Shown one piece after another: positions 3,508 to 14,643 of a stretch of DNA of 51,823 nucleotides (positions are counted from its first letter, which is position 1; each line of letters starts with the position of its first letter). The DNA is from an uncultured Clostridia bacterium (GTDB lineage Bacteria; Bacillota; Clostridia; Oscillospirales; CAG-382). The stretch covers positions 1 to 51,823 of the forward strand of contig CANQTR010000004.1 in NCBI GenBank assembly GCA_947626805.1, read 5' to 3'. The translations under genes were made by a program, and so were the position numbers. The notes under the pieces are model-generated. The model was not told the DNA's origin and ran no database searches. It saw nothing but the letters and a program-made list of their open reading frames with translations.

Positions 3508-4407
3508 TCACATTCTTGACGAAAGCGTATTATACACCTTCGAATGCGGCGGGACGGAACGCGTCAGCCACACGTTGCCGCCGATGATGCTGTCGTGACC
3601 GATGACCGTGTCCCCGCCGAGGATGGTCGCGCCGGCGTAAATCACAACCCGGTCCTCGATGTCCGGGTGGCGCTTGATGCCCTTGACCGGGTGCCCGTCG
3701 TCGTCGAGTTCGAAACTACGCGCGCCGAGCGTGACCCCTTGATAGAGCTTGACGTCCTGCCCGATGACGCATGTCTCGCCAATGACGACGCCGGTGCCGT
3801 GGTCGATGAAGAACCGTTCGCCGATTTTCGCGCCCGGGTGGATATCGATGCCGGTTTTCTGGTGGGCGTACTCGCTCATGATGCGCGGCAGGAGCGGCAC
3901 GCCGGCGCAAAGCAGCGCGTGCGCGAGCCGATGAATGCTGACCGCCTCGAACGACGGGTAGGCGAGCAGGATTTCCAGCGGGCTTTTCGCCGCCGGGTCG
4001 CCGAGATATGCCGCGTCGATGTCGGTTTGCAGCACCCGCATGACCTCCGGCAGCGCGCCGACGAACTGCTCGACCGCGCGGACCGCCTGTGTCTCCGGGC
4101 AGACCGTCCCGTCCGCACAACGGAAGGCGGTTTTGGTCAGTTCGCAAAGCAGTTCGGCGCCCTGTTCGAGTTTTTCCGCGACGAAAGCGGGCAAGCCGTC
4201 CGCCGGAATCGGCTCGGTCGAAAACAGGTTCGGGTACATCGCCATGCGGAACAGTTCGGTCGCCCGCTGTGTCCGCAACTTGACCCCGAAGCCGCCCGCT
4301 GCCGCGTCGGTCCCGGCACAGCGGAGGGACAGCAGTCGTTCGGGCAGTCCGTCCGGGACCCGCGCGCCGGTTTTGGGCGGGCGCTCCCCCTTGGTTTGTT
4401 CCGTCAT
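3508..4407 (-). CDS. cysE: Serine O-acetyltransferase
   Basis: [32 protein letters not shown] hexapeptide motifs; SD GGAGG. Confidence 0.93.
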
Positions 4408-4436
4408 GAAATCCACCTCCGTGGTCGATTTATTAC

Positions 4437-4465
4437 AGTATACACGATTCGCGCCGGTTTTGCAA
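4437..4465 (-). promoter_or_regulatory. Sigma-A promoter of cysE (TTGCAA-17-TATACT)
   Basis: ttgcaa 4460-4465, agtata 4437-4442. Confidence 0.6.
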
Positions 4466-4651
4466 GGGGTTTTCCGGTTTTCGGACGGTTTTTTCGGAAG
4501 TCCGCCCAGCACGCATAAAACAGGCGTTCTCGCACATTATTTTGTCGATTCTCGTCGAACAAATGTGCTGCAATGCCGGACAAAAAACGCTCGTTTTCGA
4601 CCCGTAAAAAGGGTGCCGAACACGCGTTCTTGTACCACACTTTGAGAAAAG

Positions 4652-4835
4652 TTATCCACATCGCAATGTGGACAAAATGTGGATAACTTGGCACTTTTCC
4701 ACATGTTATCCACACGTTGTCCACACGGTTATCCACACTGAAAATCCAGCTGTACCAACGGTTTTTCCCACTTTTCCACAAAATCCGCCCGCCTACTACT
4801 ACGACTACTACTTCCATATACCAAAAGAATTTCTT
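4652..4835 (+). other. oriC: Replication origin (oriC): DnaA-box cluster plus basal unwinding system with DnaA-trios
   Basis: TTATCCACA at 4652, 4706, 4729 and reversed at 4678; TTGTCCACA at 4717 and reversed at 4667; TTTTCCACA at 4695 and 4772. Then GC-rich CCGCCCGCC and TAC-TAC-TAC-GAC-TAC-TAC at 4794-4811. Confidence 0.85.
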
Positions 4836-5108
4836 TGTGGTGGGGCGCCCGCGCGGGCAGACGCGCGCGAGGGGTTCGACGGGGGTCGAAATTGCCATGA
4901 ATTTTTCGAGCCTTTTTTGAGCCGAAAAATTCGTTTCGTCCTGTTGCGGTAGGCAAGCGTAAAGAGCAGCGTGCAGATTTTTACAATTTGCACAAATTTT
5001 GAAATTTCAAAAAGCGAAAATTCTATGTTTTGCCAATTGACAAAGAACGTTCGTTCGTGCTATACTGCATTCATGACGAACATGCGTTCTCACTTGCCAA
5101 ACGGATTT

Positions 5109-6482
5109 TCAAGCGAGGACGGACAGCGTCGGGAACGCGCCGAACGACGAACGCACCGAAACGCCGGACGCGGCAAGCGTGTGCAGCCGTTCGGGCAGCC
5201 CCTCCGGGACGCGTTCGCCCGGCAAAAGCACCGGAATGCCCGGCGGATACGCCCAAACGTATTCGAGCGAGATTTCCCCCGCGGACGCGGCGAGCGGAAC
5301 GGTTCGGGACGGCGCGCCATACAGTTCAAACGGCTGGAAAACGGCTTGGGGCAAGGATTTTTGCGTGTTCTGCCCGAACAGCGGCGGGTGTTCCGGCGCC
5401 CCCTCCCCCGTCGCTTCGCCGTCCAGCGTCAGAACCGCGTCGGCGAACCGCCCGAGCGTTTCGCGGTCGTCACAGACCGAGGTCATCGCGAGCAGGCGGT
5501 CCGGGTAGGCGTACTCCACGTCGATGGCGAACCGCTCCCGCAACGCTTTCGCGGTCTCCGCGCCGGACGTCCCGCCGGTCAGGAGCAACAGCTTCCCCGG
5601 CTCGGCGTTTTCGGCGTCATACAGGCGGAAATGCCGCAAGTCATCGAACATCCGTTCTCTTGTCTCGTCCAACGCGTCCGCATAGGCGCGCCAAACCGCC
5701 GCCGCGTCCCCGCGCTCCAGAAAGGCGAGGCACTCGTCGACCGACGCGAGCAGGACGTAGGACGGGCTGGACGTTTCAAAGACGCTGCACGCGAAACGGA
5801 GCCGCTCCGTCCAGTCCGCCGGCGCGTGCAACAGCGCCGTCTGGGTCAGGGCGGGCAGGGTCTTGTGCAGGCTGTGTACGACGAAATCCGCGCCGCACCG
5901 AACGGCTGTTCTTCCCTCCCAACCGGGCAGGAATGCGAGGTGCGAGCCGTGCGCCTCGTCCACCAGCAGGCGCGCGCCGTGTCGGTGGCAAATCGCGGCG
6001 ATGGCGGAAACGTCGCTGACCACGCCCTCATAGGTCGGCGAAGTGATGACCGCAAGTTCGATATTCTGTCCGTTTTGGAACGCTTTCTCGACCGTTTCGG
6101 GCAGAATCGTGCCGTCCGGTTCGGGGACGAGAAAGGCGAGCGGCAGGCGGCAGAGCTCCGCCGCATTGTAGACCGAGCGGTGGCAGTTGCGGGCGATGAG
6201 CAATGTTCCGCGCCCGGTTGCCCGCACGGCGGAAAGCAGCGCGCCGGTCCCGCCGTTCACCAGAACGAACGTCTGTTCACATCTCCAGAGGGCGGACGCG
6301 CGCCGTTCGAGCGTTCGCAAAACGCCGGTCGGGGCGTGAAAGTCGTCGAGGGCGGGCAGTTCGGTCGCGTCGAGGCGGTAGGGCAGTACGGACGGGAAGC
6401 GGCGCTTGCCGCCGGGCATATGCATAGGCAGGGCGGTCTCGGCGAGCCGTTCGAGCAGGGGGAGCAGGCGGTCGTTTCGCAT
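5109..6482 (-). CDS. PLP-dependent Orn/Lys/Arg decarboxylase family protein (YaaO/SpeA-like)
   Basis: HMPGGK, ARNCHRS, TSPTYEG, VDEAHG, SLHKTLPALTQ, YPPGIP motifs; SD AAAGGAG. Confidence 0.9.
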   Translation of the reverse strand: MRNDRLLPLLERLAETALPMHMPGGKRRFPSVLPYRLDATELPALDDFHAPTGVLRTLERRASALWRCEQTFVLVNGGTGALLSAVRATGRGTLLIARNCHRSVYNAAELCRLPLAFLVPEPDGTILPETVEKAFQNGQNIELAVITSPTYEGVVSDVSAIAAICHRHGARLLVDEAHGSHLAFLPGWEGRTAVRCGADFVVHSLHKTLPALTQTALLHAPADWTERLRFACSVFETSSPSYVLLASVDECLAFLERGDAAAVWRAYADALDETRERMFDDLRHFRLYDAENAEPGKLLLLTGGTSGAETAKALRERFAIDVEYAYPDRLLAMTSVCDDRETLGRFADAVLTLDGEATGEGAPEHPPLFGQNTQKSLPQAVFQPFELYGAPSRTVPLAASAGEISLEYVWAYPPGIPVLLPGERVPEGLPERLHTLAASGVSVRSSFGAFPTLSVLA

Positions 6483-6839
6483 GGCGTGGCTCCTTTCGGT
6501 TCGGGTACGCGTGCAGTATAGCACATTTTGCGGGAAAAAGAAAGGGGGTTTCGCAATTTGCGCGGTCGTTTCGCGAAAAAATCGTGCCGTCGGGTCGCCG
6601 ATGCGTGTGAGCGGCATGCGGTGCGCGGGAATTTTGCGTTTTGCCGTGTGAAAGGTTGCGTCCGTCGCAAGAGGAACGTATTTGCGATAATTCCCACAAG
6701 CCGGCAAATCGGGGCAATTATTCCGCGCATCCGCTCGTCACGAGCACCGTTACACACCCCGCAAGAATCTTTATGCTCCGCGAAAACCCCTATATCACGC
6801 CCCGCGAAACCTTTAAGTTTCCCTCGCGAACCACGTTGT

Positions 6840-7107
6840 TCACACACCAGGGAGGAACGGGCGGCGGGCATACGACGCGGCGCCGCCGTAGCACAGACGC
6901 AATACCTCGCGCACACGCGCGTCCGTCCGAAATGCCTCCGAGCGCCGCAACGCCGCCGGACGCGACACGACCGGGACCGTCCGCTTCTTCGCGGTCCGAC
7001 GCAAGAATGCGCGCCCCTCGGCGTTCGCCGCGAGCAAAAGCCCGAACGGCACGTCCCTTCCCGGCGCGTCCGGCGCAAACCCGAACAGCACCGCCCACGC
7101 CGCGCGC
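6840..7107 (-). pseudogene. Detached copy 1 of the tmcAL 3' end (268 bp)
   Basis: Colinear with 9501..9768, no indels, same stop codon, no 5' part. Confidence 0.92.
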
Positions 7108-7416
7108 AAGACAAGGCGGCGCAAGGGTGCGCCGCGTGGAAGGGATTCGCGGAAGTTGACTGGCTATTAAAATTGTGCAATGCAGAACAATCACAAGAAA
7201 TCACATAATCCGGAAAGGGCGGATATATAGGCTATATAAACTATATACGTTACGCAAAGATAATTTTCACAAACCCGAAAAACCGGGGCAGGCTTTCTGC
7301 ATACGTGCTTATCGCAAACCACTTCCCTTTTATGCTCCACGAAAACCCCTTTACTACGCCCCGCAAAAATTTATAGTCCCGCGAAACCTTCACGTTTCCC
7401 CCGCGAACCCCGTTGT

Positions 7417-7684
7417 TCACACCCCGGGGAGGAACGGGCGGCGGGCATACGACGCGGCGCCGCCGTAGCACAGCCGCAACACGTCGCGCACACGCGCGTC
7501 CGTCCGAAATGCCTCCGCGCGCCGTAGCGCCGCCGGACGCGAAACGACCGGGACCGTCCGCTTCTTCGCGGTCCGGCGCATGAATGCGCGCCCCTCGGCG
7601 TTCGCCGCGAGCAAAAGCCCGAACGGCACGTCCCTTCCCGGCGCGTCCGGCACGAATCCGAACAGCACCGCCCACGCCGCGCGC
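7417..7684 (-). pseudogene. Detached copy 2 of the tmcAL 3' end (268 bp)
   Basis: Colinear with 9501..9768; same breakpoint as copy 1. Confidence 0.92.
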
Positions 7685-9500
7685 AAGACAAGTCGGCGCG
7701 GAGCGCGCCGCGTGGAAGGGATTCGCGTGAGTTGATTTGAATGGCTAAATCATACAATGCCGAACAATCATAAAAATTGCGCAATCCGAAAAGGACGGGT
7801 ATATAATCTACACACGATAATTTCCACAGCGTCGGCGAACCGGGGCAATCGTCCCCACCTCCACTCATCGTAGGCACCTTTACAGCCCAGCAAAAGCTTT
7901 ACGGTCCGTTGCACGTCTGTGCCGGATTGAACGGCGCAATGTAAGACGATGCGAGGAAGGGCGATGCGGGGTAAAGCAACGCGGGATATGACGGCGCGGG
8001 GTAGGGCAGCGCGGAGCGCGCCGCGTAAAAGGATTCGCGGAAGTTGCGCGAAAGTTGATTAAAAAGAACACGAAATAATTCCGGTGCCGGTAATTTTTCT
8101 TTGTGGAAATATTGCGGGGACGGACGGTGTGACCCGGAGTGACGGGGACGCAAAAGCGGAACACCGTTCCCCCAGTCCGGGGCGGCGCGAAGGCGCGCCG
8201 CGCGGAAGGGATTCGCAGGAGTTGACAAATTTGGCAAATACAAAAAATGGCGCAAGCAAAAATTATTCCACACACCCAATTCCCACAAGACCCTTTGCAA
8301 TCCCCGCGGTCCTATTTGCAGTCTGGCAGCCCAGGCGGCGCAAAACAGGGCGGCGCGAGGGCGCGCCGCGCGGAAGGGATTCGCGGAAGTTGATTGAAGA
8401 AGAACAGCGAACGATAAAATTAGTTTTCTTTAAGGAAACATTGAAAAAATCATTTCAGACAGGCATAGACTACGAGCATACATATTTCCCCGCCCTTTCC
8501 ACTCCCGGCAGGGGCGGAAGTGTGGTCCGGAGCGGCGCTAGGCGGGGCGGCGCGAGGGTGCGCCGCGCGGAAGGGATTCGCGAGAGTTGATTGAATAAGA
8601 AATTTTTGCAGTTCAAAGTACTTATAAAATCGCTCAATTTAGAAGGGACAGCTATATACCCCACACAGAGAAAAATCCCACAGAGCCGACCAATAGAAGC
8701 GATTGTTCCACGCATTCTCTCGACGCAAACCGTTTTACACGCGCTGTAAACCTTTTCGCCCCATGCGAAAACCCCTTTGCACGCACCACAAAACCTTTAC
8801 GGTACGCCGCAAATTACCTTACAGTCCGGGCGGGATTGAGCCGTGCAAGACAGGGCGGCGCGTGGACGCGCCGCGCAAAAGGATTCGCGGGAGTTGATTT
8901 ATAAAAGAAAAAATGGTTCCACAGATAGCGATATCAAAGATATGGGAAAAGCAATGTGATTGCGGGAATTACTTTGTATACTCGTATACTCACTCACCGC
9001 AAAGCTCCTTAAAGTTTGAGTAAGAATAGATAGCTATACGCTACACAGGGATAATTTCCACAAAGCTGACAAAACGGGGCAATCGTTCCGCACATCGGTT
9101 CGTCACAAGCACCCCTACACGCCCCGCAAGAATCTTTATGCTCCGCGAAAACCCCTTTATCACGCCCCGCAAATCTTTACTGCATCAGAAAAACTTTACT
9201 ACTCGAACAAGAATGGCTTTCTCAAGGTGGGGCGGCGCGGAGCGCGCCGCGCAAAGGAATTCGCGTGAGTTGACTGGCTATTAAAATTGTGCAATGCAGA
9301 ACAATCACAAAAAATCACACAATCCGGAAAGGGCGGATTATAAATCTACATGCGTTACGCAAATATAATTTCCCCAAATCCGGAAAACCAGGGCAGGCTT
9401 TCTGCATACATGCTTATCGCAAACCACTTCCCTTTTATACTCCGCGAAAACCCCTTTATCACGCCCCGCGAAACCTTTAAGTTTCCCTCGCTAACCACGT

Positions 9501-10577
9501 TCACACACCGGGGAGGAACGGGCGGCGGGCATACGACGCGGCGCCGCCGTAGCACAGCCGCAACACATCGCGCACACGCGCGTCCGTCCGAAATGCCTCC
9601 GCGCGCCGTAGCGCCGCCGGGCGCGAAACGACCGGGACCGTCCGCTTCTTCGCGGTCCGGCGCAAGAATGCGCGCCCCTCGGCGTTCGCCGCGAGCAAAA
9701 GTCCGAACGGCACATCCCTTCCGGGCGCGTTCGGCGCGAACCCGAACAGCACCGCCCACGCCGCGCGCCGCACGCGGGACGCGGTGTACACCTTATTCGT
9801 GCAGCGTTTCACCAGCCCGTCGAAGTCGTTCTCGACCGCCGCGCACGCGACCAGCCGGGCGAACAGTTCGTCCGGAACCCCGTACTTTCCCGGTTCCGGG
9901 CGGTTCCGAAGGGCGGCGAGCGCCAATTTGCCCGCGTCCGCCGTCGCGCGCGGGAAGGACGGGTCCTGCCGTAACGCCGCCTCCGCCTCCGCCGGGATAG
10001 ACCCGGACGGGACGCCCCGTTTCCGCAAATCCGTCGAACTTGCGTAGCCCGGTTCGCGTTTCAGCACGTCGCACGGCAGACCGACCCGCGCCGCCGCACG
10101 CAAGTATTCGATGGCGAGGATATCGTTCGGCTTTTGCCGCGTCGCCCGTCCGAGCGCTTGTTCCAGCGCCGCCGGGTAGGACAGCGTTCCGTCCGCGCGA
10201 ATCATCGCTTGCGCCCGCGCTTCCGCACATTCCCGCGCCCGCGCCGCCGCACGCAATCCGTCCGCGTCGCTCTCCGCCGAAAACGCCAACACATCCACGC
10301 CGACCCCCTTCGCGAGCGACACCCCGCCGGACGCGAAATCCCTCGCCGACGCACAGCACCACGGCGCGGGCAGTTCCAAAACCAAATCCGCCCCGCACGC
10401 GACCGCCGCCCGCGCCCGCGCGTACACGTCCGCCACGGCGACCTCCCCCCGCTGGGTCAAATCCCCGCCGAGCAGGCACACGACGGTCCCGTACCGCTCC
10501 CGCAAGCGCTCCAACTGCCGCTTGTGCCCGAAATGGAACGGGTTGTACTCGCAAATCACCGCGCACGCTTTCGTCAT
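9501..10577 (-). CDS. tmcAL: tRNA(Met) cytidine acetate ligase / YlbM-family HIGH nucleotidyltransferase
   Basis: CEYNPFHFGH, TQRGE, RARAA-GADLVLELP, SARDFA, PNDILAIEY motifs; divergent from ackA. Confidence 0.88.
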   Translation of the reverse strand: MTKACAVICEYNPFHFGHKRQLERLRERYGTVVCLLGGDLTQRGEVAVADVYARARAAVACGADLVLELPAPWCCASARDFASGGVSLAKGVGVDVLAFSAESDADGLRAAARARECAEARAQAMIRADGTLSYPAALEQALGRATRQKPNDILAIEYLRAAARVGLPCDVLKREPGYASSTDLRKRGVPSGSIPAEAEAALRQDPSFPRATADAGKLALAALRNRPEPGKYGVPDELFARLVACAAVENDFDGLVKRCTNKVYTASRVRRAAWAVLFGFAPNAPGRDVPFGLLLAANAEGRAFLRRTAKKRTVPVVSRPAALRRAEAFRTDARVRDVLRLCYGGAASYARRPFLPGV

Positions 10578-10592
10578 TTCCCGAAAAACCCC

Positions 10593-10642
10593 TTGCATTT
10601 TTCTTTCAAACGTATTATAATAGATGTAGGAAAAAATGTCAA
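10593..10642. promoter_or_regulatory. Overlapping divergent sigma-A promoters for ackA (+) and tmcAL (-)
   Basis: + strand: TTGCAT 10593, 17 bp, TATAAT 10616. - strand: TTGACA 10642-10637, 17 bp, TATAAT 10619-10614. Confidence 0.75.
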
Positions 10643-10656
10643 GGAGATGTTTGGTT

Positions 10657-11859
10657 ATGTTTGTTCTCGTCGTCAACGCGGGGAGTTCCTCGCTGAAGTA
10701 TCAGCTGTTCGATATGGACCGCTCGGAAATGCTCGCGAAAGGGCTTTGCGAGCGAATCGGCACGGACGGTCTGTTCTCCCATCAAGTCCCCTCGAAGGGC
10801 GTCGAAATCAAGAAAATCGCCGCCCCCATGCCCACCCACGCGGACGCGGTCAGCCTGCTCGTCAAGTACCTGACCGACCCGGTCTACGGCTGTATCAGGG
10901 AGATGTCCGAAATCTCCGCCGTCGGGCACCGTATCGTTCACGGCGGTCCGTGGCTGATTGACTCGGTGCGAATCGACGGTCCCGACGGGAAGGTCCTGTC
11001 CGACCTTCGCAAGTGCGTCGACCTCGCCCCGCTCCACACGAAGGCGCATTTGCAGGGCATCGAGGGCTGTATGCAGGTCATGCCGGACGTTCCGCAAGTG
11101 CTGGTCATGGACACGGCGTTCCACCAGACGATGCCGAAGAAAGCGTATTTCTACCCACTTCCCTACGAGATTTGTGAAAAATACGCGATTCGCCGCTACG
11201 GGTTCCACGGCACCTCGCACCGCTACGTTTCCGGCAAGGCGCTCGAACTGCTCGGCAACCCGAACGCGAAAATCGTCACCTGCCACCTCGGCAACGGCTC
11301 GTCCATCTCGGCGGTCAACGCGGGCAAGTGCGTGGACACGTCGATGGGCTTCACGCCGCTCGACGGGGTCATCATGGGGTCGCGTTGCGGCGGTATCGAC
11401 CCGGCAATCGTGCCGTTCCTGATGGAAAAGGAGCATATCCCCGTGTCCGAAATGGGCGATTGGATGAACAAGAAGTGCGGGTTCCTCGGCGTGTCCGGCG
11501 TTTCGTCCGACTTGCGCGACGTCGGCGCGGCGGCGGAGGCGGGCGACGAGCGCGCGCGGCTCTCGCTGGACATTCTTGCCTACCAAATCAAGAAGTACGT
11601 CGGCGCTTACGCCGCCGCGATGAACGGGCTGGACGCCGTCGTGTTCACGGCGGGTATCGGCGAAAACAACCCGGATATCCGCCGCGAATCCATGGCGGAC
11701 ATGGAGTTCCTCGGCATCCGTATCGACCCGGTCCGCAACGCCGACCGTTCCGCGACCCGTATCAGCGCCGACGACAGCCGCGTGCAGGTGTTCGTCATCC
11801 CGACGAACGAGGAGCTGGTCATCGCGTCCGACACGCTTCGAATCTCGCAACAAAAATAG
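10657..11859 (+). CDS. ackA: Acetate kinase
   Basis: VNAGSSSLK, GHRIVHGG, DTAFHQT, YGFHGTSH, HLGNGSS, TNEE motifs. Confidence 0.97.
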   Translation: MFVLVVNAGSSSLKYQLFDMDRSEMLAKGLCERIGTDGLFSHQVPSKGVEIKKIAAPMPTHADAVSLLVKYLTDPVYGCIREMSEISAVGHRIVHGGPWLIDSVRIDGPDGKVLSDLRKCVDLAPLHTKAHLQGIEGCMQVMPDVPQVLVMDTAFHQTMPKKAYFYPLPYEICEKYAIRRYGFHGTSHRYVSGKALELLGNPNAKIVTCHLGNGSSISAVNAGKCVDTSMGFTPLDGVIMGSRCGGIDPAIVPFLMEKEHIPVSEMGDWMNKKCGFLGVSGVSSDLRDVGAAAEAGDERARLSLDILAYQIKKYVGAYAAAMNGLDAVVFTAGIGENNPDIRRESMADMEFLGIRIDPVRNADRSATRISADDSRVQVFVIPTNEELVIASDTLRISQQK

Positions 11860-13259: not shown

Positions 13260-13914
13260 GGGTACGAAGAGTACGGTGGGGGTAGTAACTACCCCCACAC
13301 CCCCGTAGCGCGAAGTCAACTGTCGTTGACTTCGGGGGATAAAATTTTTGAACGCGTCGGCTGGAATTTGCGCCTTCCCACAAAAAAGCCGTCACCCCCA
13401 AGGTCTGTAGGTTGCTATCGCAATTCGCAAAAGTCACGGACTTTTGCGAACGCCGAAGTTTCCCCTTGCGGCTCAACCGCGAGCCGCATTTTCGCCCTGC
13501 GCGTTGCGCTGGGCGAAAACCGTGGAAATTCGAGCTGGCGCCCCCAATTTTCGTTATTAGCTTGAAACAAACAAAAATTCCGGCGGACAGCAGTCCGTCG
13601 GAATCTTTTACGCAATTTGGGTGCGAGCGAGGGCGGCTTGCAGGCAAGCCGCCGGAGCCGGTGAACACCGGGTCGCGAAGGCAAAATCGAGAGAGCACCG
13701 AACGAAAACCCCGAGGCGGGGCGGTAAAAAACCCGGGCGAGCAAGCACCGCACGCAAACCCGAGGCAGGGAGGCGGAATTTTATCTAAAAACCCCTCGAA
13801 TTTACCGGCGTAGCCGGGAAATTCGCGCTACGGGGGGTGTGGGGGGGACGAGTTCCCCCACCGTACCCCTCGTACCCCTCCGTACCCTCGTACCCCTCCG
13901 TACCCGCGTACCCC
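13256..13914. repeat. Composite REP-like element (family X) with inverted ends, between convergent genes
   Basis: Left GTACGGTGGGGG..CCCCCACACCCCCGTAGCGCGAA and its inverse at 13821-13866; core shared with ~29504-29551. Confidence 0.85.
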
Positions 13915-14643
13915 TCAAAACAACCCCTTCAAAAACGACGTGATTTCGTCGTACCAGTACACGAACGGGACAATCAAGGCAACGGAAAGGACGCAAACGG
14001 CGGCGAGGACGGCAAATTGCGTTTTGGTGTAGGACAGCGCGGCGCCGTCCGGCAGGGCGCCCATCTGGTGCAAGGGGTGGCGAAGGGCGCGTAGGAGCGC
14101 GCAAATGACGAACACCTCCAGCGGGAGGAGGAGCAGGTTCTTCGCGCCGGAAAGCGTGGCGAGGTAGCCGAACATTCCGAAGTTGCCGCCGTAGCGGAGC
14201 AAAACGTTCCAAACCGAACCGAGCAGGACGTTGCAAAAGACGTTGATGATCCCCTTCGCGAGCAGGACGCGCGTGAAGCTGGGCTTGGCGCGGTAGAGAA
14301 AGAGGGCGTAGACGAGCGCGGTGAGGACGGCGGTCAGGGTGTAACCGGGAAAAAACGGGTCCGGCGAGAGCGCAATCCCCACGAGGTCGACGAGCAGGGC
14401 GCAAGGAATCGCCATGACCGGTCCGGTTATCATCGAGCAGAGCGCGACGACCGGGAACGAGAACATGACCCGTAGGTTGTTGGACAGCACGGGAATGTAG
14501 ATACGCTCGAGCGCGATGGCGAGCGCGCAAAGCAGCGCCGCCGTGACGAGGGAACGGAGCCGCGTCATTTCGGTCGCCGCCTGCCGCCAATAGGCGCGGG
14601 AGAACGGGTGCGGGAAGGTTTGCGGTTCGACGGTTTTTTGCAT
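13915..14643 (-). CDS. folT: Folate ECF transporter S component
   Basis: Hydrophobic protein with FFPGYTL motif; THF riboswitch upstream; SD AGGAGG. Confidence 0.88.
   Translation of the reverse strand: MQKTVEPQTFPHPFSRAYWRQAATEMTRLRSLVTAALLCALAIALERIYIPVLSNNLRVMFSFPVVALCSMITGPVMAIPCALLVDLVGIALSPDPFFPGYTLTAVLTALVYALFLYRAKPSFTRVLLAKGIINVFCNVLLGSVWNVLLRYGGNFGMFGYLATLSGAKNLLLLPLEVFVICALLRALRHPLHQMGALPDGAALSYTKTQFAVLAAVCVLSVALIVPFVYWYDEITSFLKGLF

Follow-up and report, generated by a model that had tools for sequence, protein, structure and literature searches.

Mosaic arrays that drive the exchange of neighbouring genes are already known from the NIMEs of Neisseria and the PeSLs of T4-type phages. 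In NIMEs, dRS3 inverted repeats flank RS elements (PMC1797815, PMC11893778). PeSLs are conserved stem-loops that lie between non-essential segments and act as points of modular shuffling, and the work on them also describes mini-circles (PMC2839356, PMC4122927). In the current study, we describe an array of eight copies of a repeat of ~45-60 nt, here called R, at positions 7101-9278 of contig CANQTR010000004.1 from an uncultured rabbit-gut Clostridia lineage (the whole stretch of 51,823 nt is referred to as the window). The array lies between two housekeeping genes: a HIGH nucleotidyltransferase gene (9501-10676, minus strand; Pfam PF05636), which we take to be of the tmcAL type and call tmcAL, and a gene of the Orn/Lys/Arg-decarboxylase family (5109-6485, minus strand). 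Its copies are numbered R1-R8 and the stretches between copies are termed modules C0-C8. The array is real, varies between strains and is restricted to this lineage. With slightly less confidence than doubt, we read it as an intergenic mosaic of the NIME or PeSL kind, in which R would serve as portable recombination homology and, on its opposite strand, as a decaying intrinsic terminator.

The resemblance to NIMEs is one of kind and not of homology, in that the R array combines a palindromic repeat, diverse non-coding units and variability between strains. In Neisseria, a short GC-rich palindrome likewise separates many families of non-coding units of 50-150+ bp, and GC content peaks at the repeat and dips within the units (PMC1797815). 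The number and length of arrays also vary between strains, and arrays are found by surface-protein genes and are linked to phage (PMC1797815, PMC11893778), as are the R arrays in the relatives of the genome studied here. However, R shows no likeness to dRS3 (ATTCCC-N8-GGGAAT) or to NTS, comes from another phylum, and has 10-40 copies per genome rather than hundreds. It is also longer (45-60 nt) and oriented, being always direct within an array, and no Ssn-type GIY-YIG nuclease was found in the R-bearing genomes. We know of no phage recombinase that targets R.

R also recalls PeSLs in that it occurs within a phage-like gene cluster, and mini-circles like those of the PeSL work would fit the duplicated tmcAL ends described below. 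However, a PeSL consists of a strong sigma-70 promoter and an effective terminator, whereas R shows no promoter enrichment and only part of the features of a terminator. Moreover, the R modules lack open reading frames (ORFs), and the array studied here is chromosomal. By analogy, R shares the behaviour of NIMEs and PeSLs but not their sequence, their copy number or the promoter part.

The array and its assembly

The genome under study (G000) is a metagenome-assembled genome (MAG) of 1.97 Mb in 168 contigs, with a completeness of 81%. R was modelled by a covariance model of 36 copies, eight from the window and 28 from a related MAG. An earlier note, made from the letters of the window alone, had reported eight same-strand copies with a 45-nt core, and all of them were found where it had placed them. 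These are R1 at 7101-7164 (core 7115-7159; 77.8 bits), R2 at 7678-7740 (core 7692-7735; 65.9 bits), R3 at 7991-8052 (core 8005-8046; 46.1 bits), which is the most degenerate copy, R4 at 8167-8230 (core from 8181; 66.8 bits), R5 at 8335-8398 (core from 8349), R6 at 8532-8595 (core from 8546), R7 at 8840-8902 (core from 8854) and R8 at 9217-9278 (core from 9231), all on the plus strand. Read on the minus strand, as tmcAL is, R8 follows the stop codon of this gene at a distance of 230 nt. Under the covariance model the eight copies reach 46-80 bits, with E-values from 7e-11 to 1e-21. A degenerate pattern of the core has five matches in the window and none in 100 shuffles; it misses three array copies because each of them carries a 1-nt deletion.

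In the alignment of the eight copies, 29/81 columns are invariant. Each copy contains a hairpin (hairpin 1), for which a compensatory change had been claimed, and this is present: R1 reads GCGGCGCA/TGCGCCGC and closes with an A-T pair in place of the G-C pair of other copies, while the closing pair of R6 is the G-T variant. The AGTTGA that was said to follow the second hairpin is conserved in seven of the eight copies, the exception being R3, which has AGTTGC at this place and AGTTGA 11 nt later. Among all R copies AGTTG is nearly invariant (AGTTGAT in 48/61), and the sequence outside hairpin 1 is strongly conserved. Successive copies are separated by 129-538 nt, AGTTG included. GC content is 67-76% in the cores and 43-52% in the spacers, and the abrupt switch to AT-rich DNA is evident in the first 60 nt past each repeat, which have 27-38% GC. 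The homologies proposed among spacers also hold, with 88% identity between 7160-7691 and 9274-9768 and 87% between 6686-6815 and 9050-9179.

With arrays of this sort, the array itself or the order of its modules could be an artefact that arose when the metagenome bin was assembled. The bin is fragmented and incomplete, R arrays break contigs in a related MAG that is 97% complete (G061), and no single Logan contig covers the whole stretch. Nevertheless, contigs of one sequencing run (X1) bridge R3 and R4 (7790-8268) and R5, R6 and R7 (8251-8917) with 0 differences, which speaks against misassembly, and another contig of this run reaches from module C1 into R2 (7235-7735). At 45-60 nt the repeat fits within reads of the usual length, and like arrays are present in two other assemblies. 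The three copies of the tmcAL 3' end at this locus can be told apart because they differ by 4-6% in their coding part. We therefore judge an artefact to be very improbable.

Modules joined at R in other samples

Metagenome contigs from three other rabbit or gut samples, belonging to two other studies, were mapped onto positions 5800-10400 at a likeness of at least 88%. The earlier note had proposed that R delimits non-coding cassettes, and these contigs bear it out, since modules have been deleted, duplicated and re-ordered at R. An invariant array, which the note had also allowed for, is not what was found, as both the order and the content of modules vary between samples. Where the window has the order C3-C4-C5-C6-C7, a 1007-nt contig (run X5, record 11) has C3-C5-C4-C7, and a 426-nt contig (run X7, record 24) has C5-C4-C7. 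Other joints skip module C1 (7137>7718), modules C1-C3 (7137>8206), C2-C7 (7700>9242), C4 (8189>8361) or C5-C6 (8361>8867). Every joint in the contigs of other samples falls within R. Loose ends that carry other modules begin immediately past AGTTGA (7159) or AGTTGAYTGG (7163), and immediately ahead of 7115. The same modules are thus assembled in other orders at R.

The position of exchange within R was approached by comparing pairs of R copies that have one flank in common and differ in the other, with 10 pairs per class. Columns 1-16 of the alignment agree at 94% in pairs with the same upstream module and at 62% in pairs with the same downstream module. In columns 17-37 the two classes are equal (93% and 93%), in columns 38-55 they are close (82% and 85%), and in columns 56-66 the downstream class is the higher (81% and 95.5%). 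The first 16 columns hence appear to track the upstream module and columns 56-66 the downstream module, while the hairpin core tracks neither, a pattern that fits exchange anywhere in the core.

These observations are consistent with a simple mechanism. Short non-coding modules would be joined in tandem by a portable, GC-rich stem-loop of ~60 nt, and R, as their common homology, would allow recombination to delete, duplicate, re-order and import modules. Such recombination, we infer, would be homologous rather than site-specific.

An insertion hot spot between tmcAL and the decarboxylase gene

In nine congeners the tmcAL and decarboxylase genes abut, at distances of 11-43 nt between the matched ranges, and in G008 the stop codon of one and the start codon of the other overlap as ATGA. 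The window has an insert of 3.0 kb at this place. Its four relatives described here also have inserts, each of its own kind. G024 (locus L069; tmcAL 82% identical to that of the window) carries 1.4 kb with one lipoprotein gene, and G073 (L070; 61%) carries 2.8 kb with two lipoprotein paralogs. In G001 (L071; 91%) three lipoprotein paralogs are followed by the end of the contig, and in G061 (L047; 92%) three paralogs are followed by an R copy at the contig end; the next contig of G061 begins with an R array that reaches up to the decarboxylase gene. R was not found in the inserts of G024, G073 and G001. The alignment of the window with G061 breaks off at the tmcAL stop codon (9508) and resumes at 6503, and R is all that the two share in between. 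The gap between tmcAL and the decarboxylase gene is an insertion hot spot, where a gene pair that ancestrally abutted has been split, and in G000 the site is taken by the array.

The lipoproteins encoded by these inserts have ~440-510 amino acids and no Pfam match, and one to three tandem paralogs are present in the closest relatives. This family is absent from G000 as assembled. The idea that the array holds lipoprotein pseudogenes was rejected, as tblastn gave nothing better than E 0.03 in the window insert. Just upstream of the decarboxylase gene, at 6510-6540 on the minus strand, there is an extended -10 promoter (TGTGCTATACT). The overlapping gene of congeners has no such promoter, so the decarboxylase gene seems to have gained its own after being split from tmcAL.

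The last 267 nt of tmcAL are present three times on the minus strand, as the end of the real gene (9501-9768) and as displaced copies at 7417-7684 and 6840-7107. In the reading direction of the minus strand, each of the three leads into a related non-coding module and an R copy. Both displaced ends also meet R at one identical junction, the copy at 6840-7107 abutting the left edge of R1 and the copy at 7417-7684 joining R2 in the same way. The three ends differ from one another by 10-15 nt, and by codon position the differences number 2, 1 and 7, 3, 0 and 12, and 3, 1 and 10 in the three comparisons. Synonymous and non-synonymous codons stand at 7:3, 11:3 and 9:4, so that the encoded peptides hardly differ. 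Because the differences favour third positions, each end must have evolved within a working gene; dead fragments drifting in place would not be expected to give such a pattern. It looks as if incoming DNA had replaced the tmcAL 3' end in successive rounds. Small circles that entered by Campbell-type recombination, or an integrating element, could have brought their own tmcAL end, and entry of circles in this manner would explain the two extra ends.

The modules themselves are non-coding. Module C0 (6504-7114) comprises native-looking intergenic DNA, a motif module (6686-6815) and the displaced tmcAL end at 6840-7107, and module C1 (7160-7691) an AT-rich part, the motif module and the second displaced end. 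Modules C2 (7736-8004), C3 (8047-8180), C4 (8226-8348), C5 (8394-8545), C6 (8591-8853) and C7 (8898-9230) occur nowhere else in G000, and C8 (9274-9500) extends from R8 to the tmcAL stop codon.

The motif module (families D4 and D6) recurs in six spacers, at 6686-6815, 7259-7373, 7816-7913 (C2), 8670-8811 (C6), 9050-9180 (C7) and 9364-9479. It consists of GATAATTTCCACA...GGGGCAATCG followed by CTTTA-containing units at a spacing of ~21 nt, and three of its copies come after a tmcAL stop codon on the minus strand. The motif module might be bound by a regulator or act as a promoter. Tandem Repeats Finder reported nothing beyond minor rows and did not flag it, and no tRNA or tmRNA gene was found in 5000-11000.

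Distribution and genomic contexts of the R family

Beside G000, the covariance-model search took in 60 relatives, 36 of the genus and 24 from other families of the order. G000 has 14 matches at E<=1, of which ten are strong: the eight of the array and one each on contigs C40 and C32 (the contig labels C13, C30, C32, C40 and C110 are distinct from array modules C0-C8). The remaining four are weak (E 0.03-0.9). The earlier note had considered that R could be an ordinary genome-wide repetitive extragenic palindrome (REP), for which tens to hundreds of dispersed extragenic copies would be expected; ten strong copies in 1.97 Mb, eight of them in one array, do not fit that description. At E<=1e-6, R is present in two of 61 genomes of the genus, namely G000 and G086. 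The latter and G061 are one and the same assembly, accessed via a public MAG. The 60 relatives gave only three weak matches of 20-26 bits.

G061 has 39 R matches, nearly all in arrays that end contigs. A third genome, G062, has 13, on two small contigs. These contigs resemble those of G061 (74-93% nucleotide identity), whereas the tmcAL of G062 is just 32% identical to that of the window, so that G062 is not treated here as a separate host of R. Its copies may reflect either mis-binning or transfer, and we make no claim of horizontal transfer. R is accordingly a small family of ~10-40 copies per genome, confined to a few related rabbit-gut Clostridia.

Searches of public collections gave nothing further. 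No Rfam family matched the array (E<=1) or five related loci (E<=0.1), blastn of 7100-9500 found no match among phage records, and IMG/VR had 0 matches with both the strict and the relaxed R pattern. JGI metagenome contigs had 0 matches with the strict pattern; two JGI contigs found with the relaxed pattern were rejected as members, since neither was scored by the model at E<=0.01. Relaxed-pattern matches in MAGs of Comamonas, Deltaproteobacteria, Chthoniobacterales and Acidobacteriota scored at most 20 bits or were unscored, and we take them to be due to chance.

Outside the hot spot, R is found in two kinds of context. On contig C40 of G000, terL and a gene for a P22-like portal protein are separated by 1.1 kb of non-coding DNA that contains an isolated copy, on the same strand as these genes, in a cluster with the order terS-like gene, terL, portal, major head protein and holin. 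The homologous cluster of G061 has terS (Pfam GP3_package), 12 R copies, terL, two R copies, the portal gene and one R copy further on, all on the sense strand. Other R arrays precede or follow lipoprotein genes and have the opposite orientation. R may have come with, or been shared with, the phage-like cluster and the lipoprotein island, and in G000 the array would be what is left at the site of the island.

These contexts have features of their own. In the terL-portal gap of contig C40 (3396-4364, locus L040), inverted repeats of 108-125 nt (89-98% complementary) bracket the isolated R, and the gap also holds a 102-nt direct repeat. The bracketed segment could be invertible or resemble a miniature inverted-repeat transposable element, and its inversion would flip the orientation of R within the packaging operon. 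Contig C32 has a tandem array at 4081-4897 (locus L041) with 22.8 copies of a 36-nt unit (85% match), each with a short CCCGC...GCGGG hairpin. A near-consensus promoter (TTGACA, 17 nt, TATACT) immediately precedes this array, which lies ~230 nt from the isolated R copy at 5178-5241 and is possibly a transcribed repeat RNA.

A second lipoprotein family adjoins R arrays at L003 (5175-6464), L002 (2437-3603) and L037 (5749-7023). Its members have the signal peptide, Ser/Thr-rich linker and Cys-rich segment in common, differ in their C-terminal domains, and occur beside a SpaA/Cna-B-type surface protein and terS. This neighbourhood suggests that the phage-like cluster carries variable surface proteins.

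Relation to systems with dedicated recombinases

The joints within R could also arise if a dedicated system for recombination or transposition recognised R and moved R-bounded modules in and out, which is the view put forward in the earlier note. The site might be folded single-stranded DNA, as in attC, REP/RAYT or IS200/IS605 systems, or the target of a phage recombinase in the manner of dRS3. We consider such a system unlikely. In its favour, the stem of hairpin 1 is strictly conserved and its loop varies in sequence and length (3-4 nt), which speaks for a site extruded as a hairpin over one in duplex form, and G.U pairs suit one strand only. The near-invariance of AGTTG, the single orientation of the array copies, the recurrence of modules in different arrays and orders, and the patchy distribution tied to the phage-like cluster would all suit a dedicated system, and the two gene-end duplications resemble integration scars.

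The features of known sites of this kind nevertheless do not carry over to R. The inverse core sites of attC, R'' (RYYYAAC) and R' (GTTRRRY), pair with each other. The 3' motif of R, GTTGAYT, departs from GTTRRRY at position 6, and no complementary RTCAAC is present upstream of the hairpin, where the relatives have AAAAAAC and the window copies CAAGACA or similar. The long imperfect hairpin of attC, which has extrahelical bases on its bottom strand, was not found either, as R has a perfect 8-bp stem and a second, weak helix that is not predicted. There is also no sharp switch of module linkage at G|TT, the cassette boundary by which an entire attC site stays with the upstream cassette, since pairs with the same upstream module already fall to 82% at columns 38-55 in the small sample described above. 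Integron cassettes carry ORFs, and complete integrons have an intI gene next to them; with no ORFs in the modules and no intI in the window, the attC-like nature proposed in the earlier note is not borne out. CALINs, which are attC arrays that lack an integrase, are similar in being one-orientation arrays of a structured repeat that delimits cassettes and has a conserved, GTT-containing 3' end, but R lacks the features that define attC and its modules are non-coding.

Candidate enzymes are likewise not linked to R. The 51.8-kb window has no recombinase gene. Tyrosine recombinase genes are present in all three R-bearing genomes but never beside an array, and those of G000 lie on other contigs. 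The search for a RAYT or Y1 transposase located one in G000 on contig C110, where there is no R, and the Y1 family is found in 20/60 congeners versus 1/60 for R. The REP-like nature suggested for the repeat is therefore not supported either: a RAYT (Y1) gene would be flanked by its repeat and share its distribution, whereas the ten copies here are all direct and the Y1 gene lies elsewhere with a different distribution. REPs and their composite BIMEs do share with R a clustered, extragenic, GC-rich palindrome and possible effects on transcript ends; R differs in not being genome-wide, in lacking an inverted-pair arrangement and in having no associated RAYT. A Y2 transposase of the IS91/Helitron type was not found, but the control genomes also gave nothing, and this search is uninformative. 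Pairing of R with an Ssn-type enzyme, as for NTS, was rejected, because no small GIY-YIG gene was found and the sole match in each R-bearing genome is an ORF of ~640 amino acids, the size of UvrC and not Ssn-like.

The verdict that the array is not CRISPR-like stands. Its spacers are 129-538 nt long, partly homologous to each other and recurrent in other arrays of the relatives; no CRISPR direct repeat matched R, and the flanking genes are tmcAL and the decarboxylase gene. G000 has a true CRISPR array on contig C13 (11381-13110), whose 26 repeats measure 33 nt, share the end GTGGATTGAAAT and presumably belong to a type I-C-like system. A homologue of the lipoprotein associated with arrays in the relatives adjoins it at ~13516-14295.

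Folding, strand and transcription

R had been described as a double hairpin, and this description is only half established. Hairpin 1 is well established, with 8 bp in a perfect stem and 3-4 nt in the loop: in 60 distinct copies from three assemblies its cells are paired at 97.5% on the plus strand and 97.9% on the minus strand. Hairpin 2 (GCGGA-AGGGA-TTCGC) exists as sequence but is weak, as it is predicted neither by minimum free energy (MFE) folds nor by RNAalifold on 61 copies, which gave hairpin 1 alone and one extra pair, 15-39. The window copies do not fold better than shuffled sequences (MFE z-scores of -0.02 to -1.2), and variation in hairpin 2 is confined to one side of each pair. 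Its paired cells amount to 93.0% on the plus strand and 73.8% on the minus strand, a bias that arises because two of its pairs are mostly G.U. This G.U pattern mildly favours the plus strand as the one that folds.

The opposite strand offers a different view of the repeat. In relatives an A-run precedes hairpin 1, so that the opposite strand reads as a stem-loop, CCCGTG and TTTTTT. A T-run of at least five on this strand is present in 23/38 copies of G061, 5/13 of G062 and 2/10 of G000, the last being the two isolated ones. A terminator scan flags three of the eight window copies, five R copies in the terS-terL array of G061 and 6/9 in the array on its contig C30. Behind tmcAL in the window and behind the lipoprotein genes of G061 and G062, R lies in the terminating orientation; at all examined intergenic positions of the terS-terL-portal clusters it lies in the non-terminating one. 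These orientations are as expected if the opposite strand terminates transcription, although they represent few independent events. Read on the opposite strand, which is also the one that encodes tmcAL and the lipoproteins of the relatives, the family consensus resembles an intrinsic terminator whose features are mostly lost from the eight array copies, and R may terminate transcription.

It is also conceivable, although we think it rather improbable, that the array acts as RNA. On the plus strand it could be transcribed with the late genes of the phage-like cluster, and its folded R units could be sites of processing or function as decoys or anti-defence RNA. On the minus strand, modules could be small RNAs or 3' untranslated regions that end in the R terminator after a C-rich anti-Shine-Dalgarno stretch (CUCCC, UCCCUUCC). 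An unpaired, C-rich stretch followed by a hairpin and a T-tract, as seen on this strand, is a layout common for small RNAs of Firmicutes. For the plus strand, R is always on the sense strand inside the terS-terL-portal cluster, and hairpin 2 and pair 15-39 (GU 38, GC 20, AU 3) form only there; the strong conservation beyond hairpin 1 would also suit a functional RNA.

Several results point the other way. The absence of an Rfam match and the poor predicted folding of hairpin 2 have been mentioned, and in three arrays neither strand has an excess of promoter-like sites (2 found versus 1.5 expected, 0 versus 0.5, and 1 versus 1.2). The sole site in the third array belongs to a lipoprotein gene. 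Since promoters are not enriched, a row of small self-contained genes is unlikely. A sponge for CsrA, suggested by GGA in the loop of hairpin 2 and by UUGGA, was rejected: no CsrA gene was found in the three R-bearing genomes, which argues against it. Mimicry of a CRISPR repeat in the manner of Racr was likewise set aside: the likeness is weak (15.3 versus 11.8 +/- 1.7 for shuffles), and GTGGA follows the hairpin in just 20/61 copies. Coding functions fared no better. A candidate frame of 32 codons with a Shine-Dalgarno-like site in module C7 has an 8-nt deletion in another sample (run X7), type-A modules of G061 differ by frame-shifting indels, and no credible ORF was found in the array modules.

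The interpretation of R as portable homology and decaying terminator also has points that weigh against it. The contigs that show re-ordering are 3-9% diverged and possibly derive from another locus or species, the crossover comparison is small at 10 pairs per class, and R offers only ~45 nt at ~85% identity, which is short for RecA-type recombination. As to termination, a T-run of at least four on the opposite strand is kept in one of the eight array copies (R5, with a run of 4), which makes termination by the array copies doubtful. The T-tract of the family begins 3-6 nt past the stem, and an extended terminator stem (columns 11-14 with 36-39) was discarded for inconsistent covariation on either strand. 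In addition, the 20 conserved nucleotides from hairpin 1 to AGTTGA exceed what a terminator or a patch of homology needs, and the G.U pattern of this stretch suits the plus strand better. Finally, the analogy with PeSLs is incomplete because the modules show no enrichment of sigma-70-like promoters.

A more speculative proposal combines phage and RNA: R-bounded modules would form a phage-borne cassette system for non-coding RNA. They would be co-transcribed with late genes in the cluster of a compact phage-like particle, possibly one like a gene transfer agent, would fold on the sense strand and be cut or bound at R, and would be moved between the particle genome and the chromosome by a recombination activity. 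We regard this as a long shot. If true, the array would be comparable to an integron or a CRISPR array with RNA modules as its cargo in place of genes or spacers.

Implications

A limited full-text literature search found no comparable system in gut Clostridia, which does not establish its absence. In the genomes studied here, one repeat family links a phage-like packaging cluster, variable surface lipoproteins and a chromosomal hot spot, and no two of five related species have rebuilt the tmcAL-decarboxylase hot spot in the same way. Should R have a recombinase of its own or a role as RNA, it would represent a new cassette system. If R promotes exchange, it would mark sites at which surface-protein genes and accessory DNA turn over in an uncultured gut lineage, and it would provide a tractable marker for tracking strains in metagenomes.

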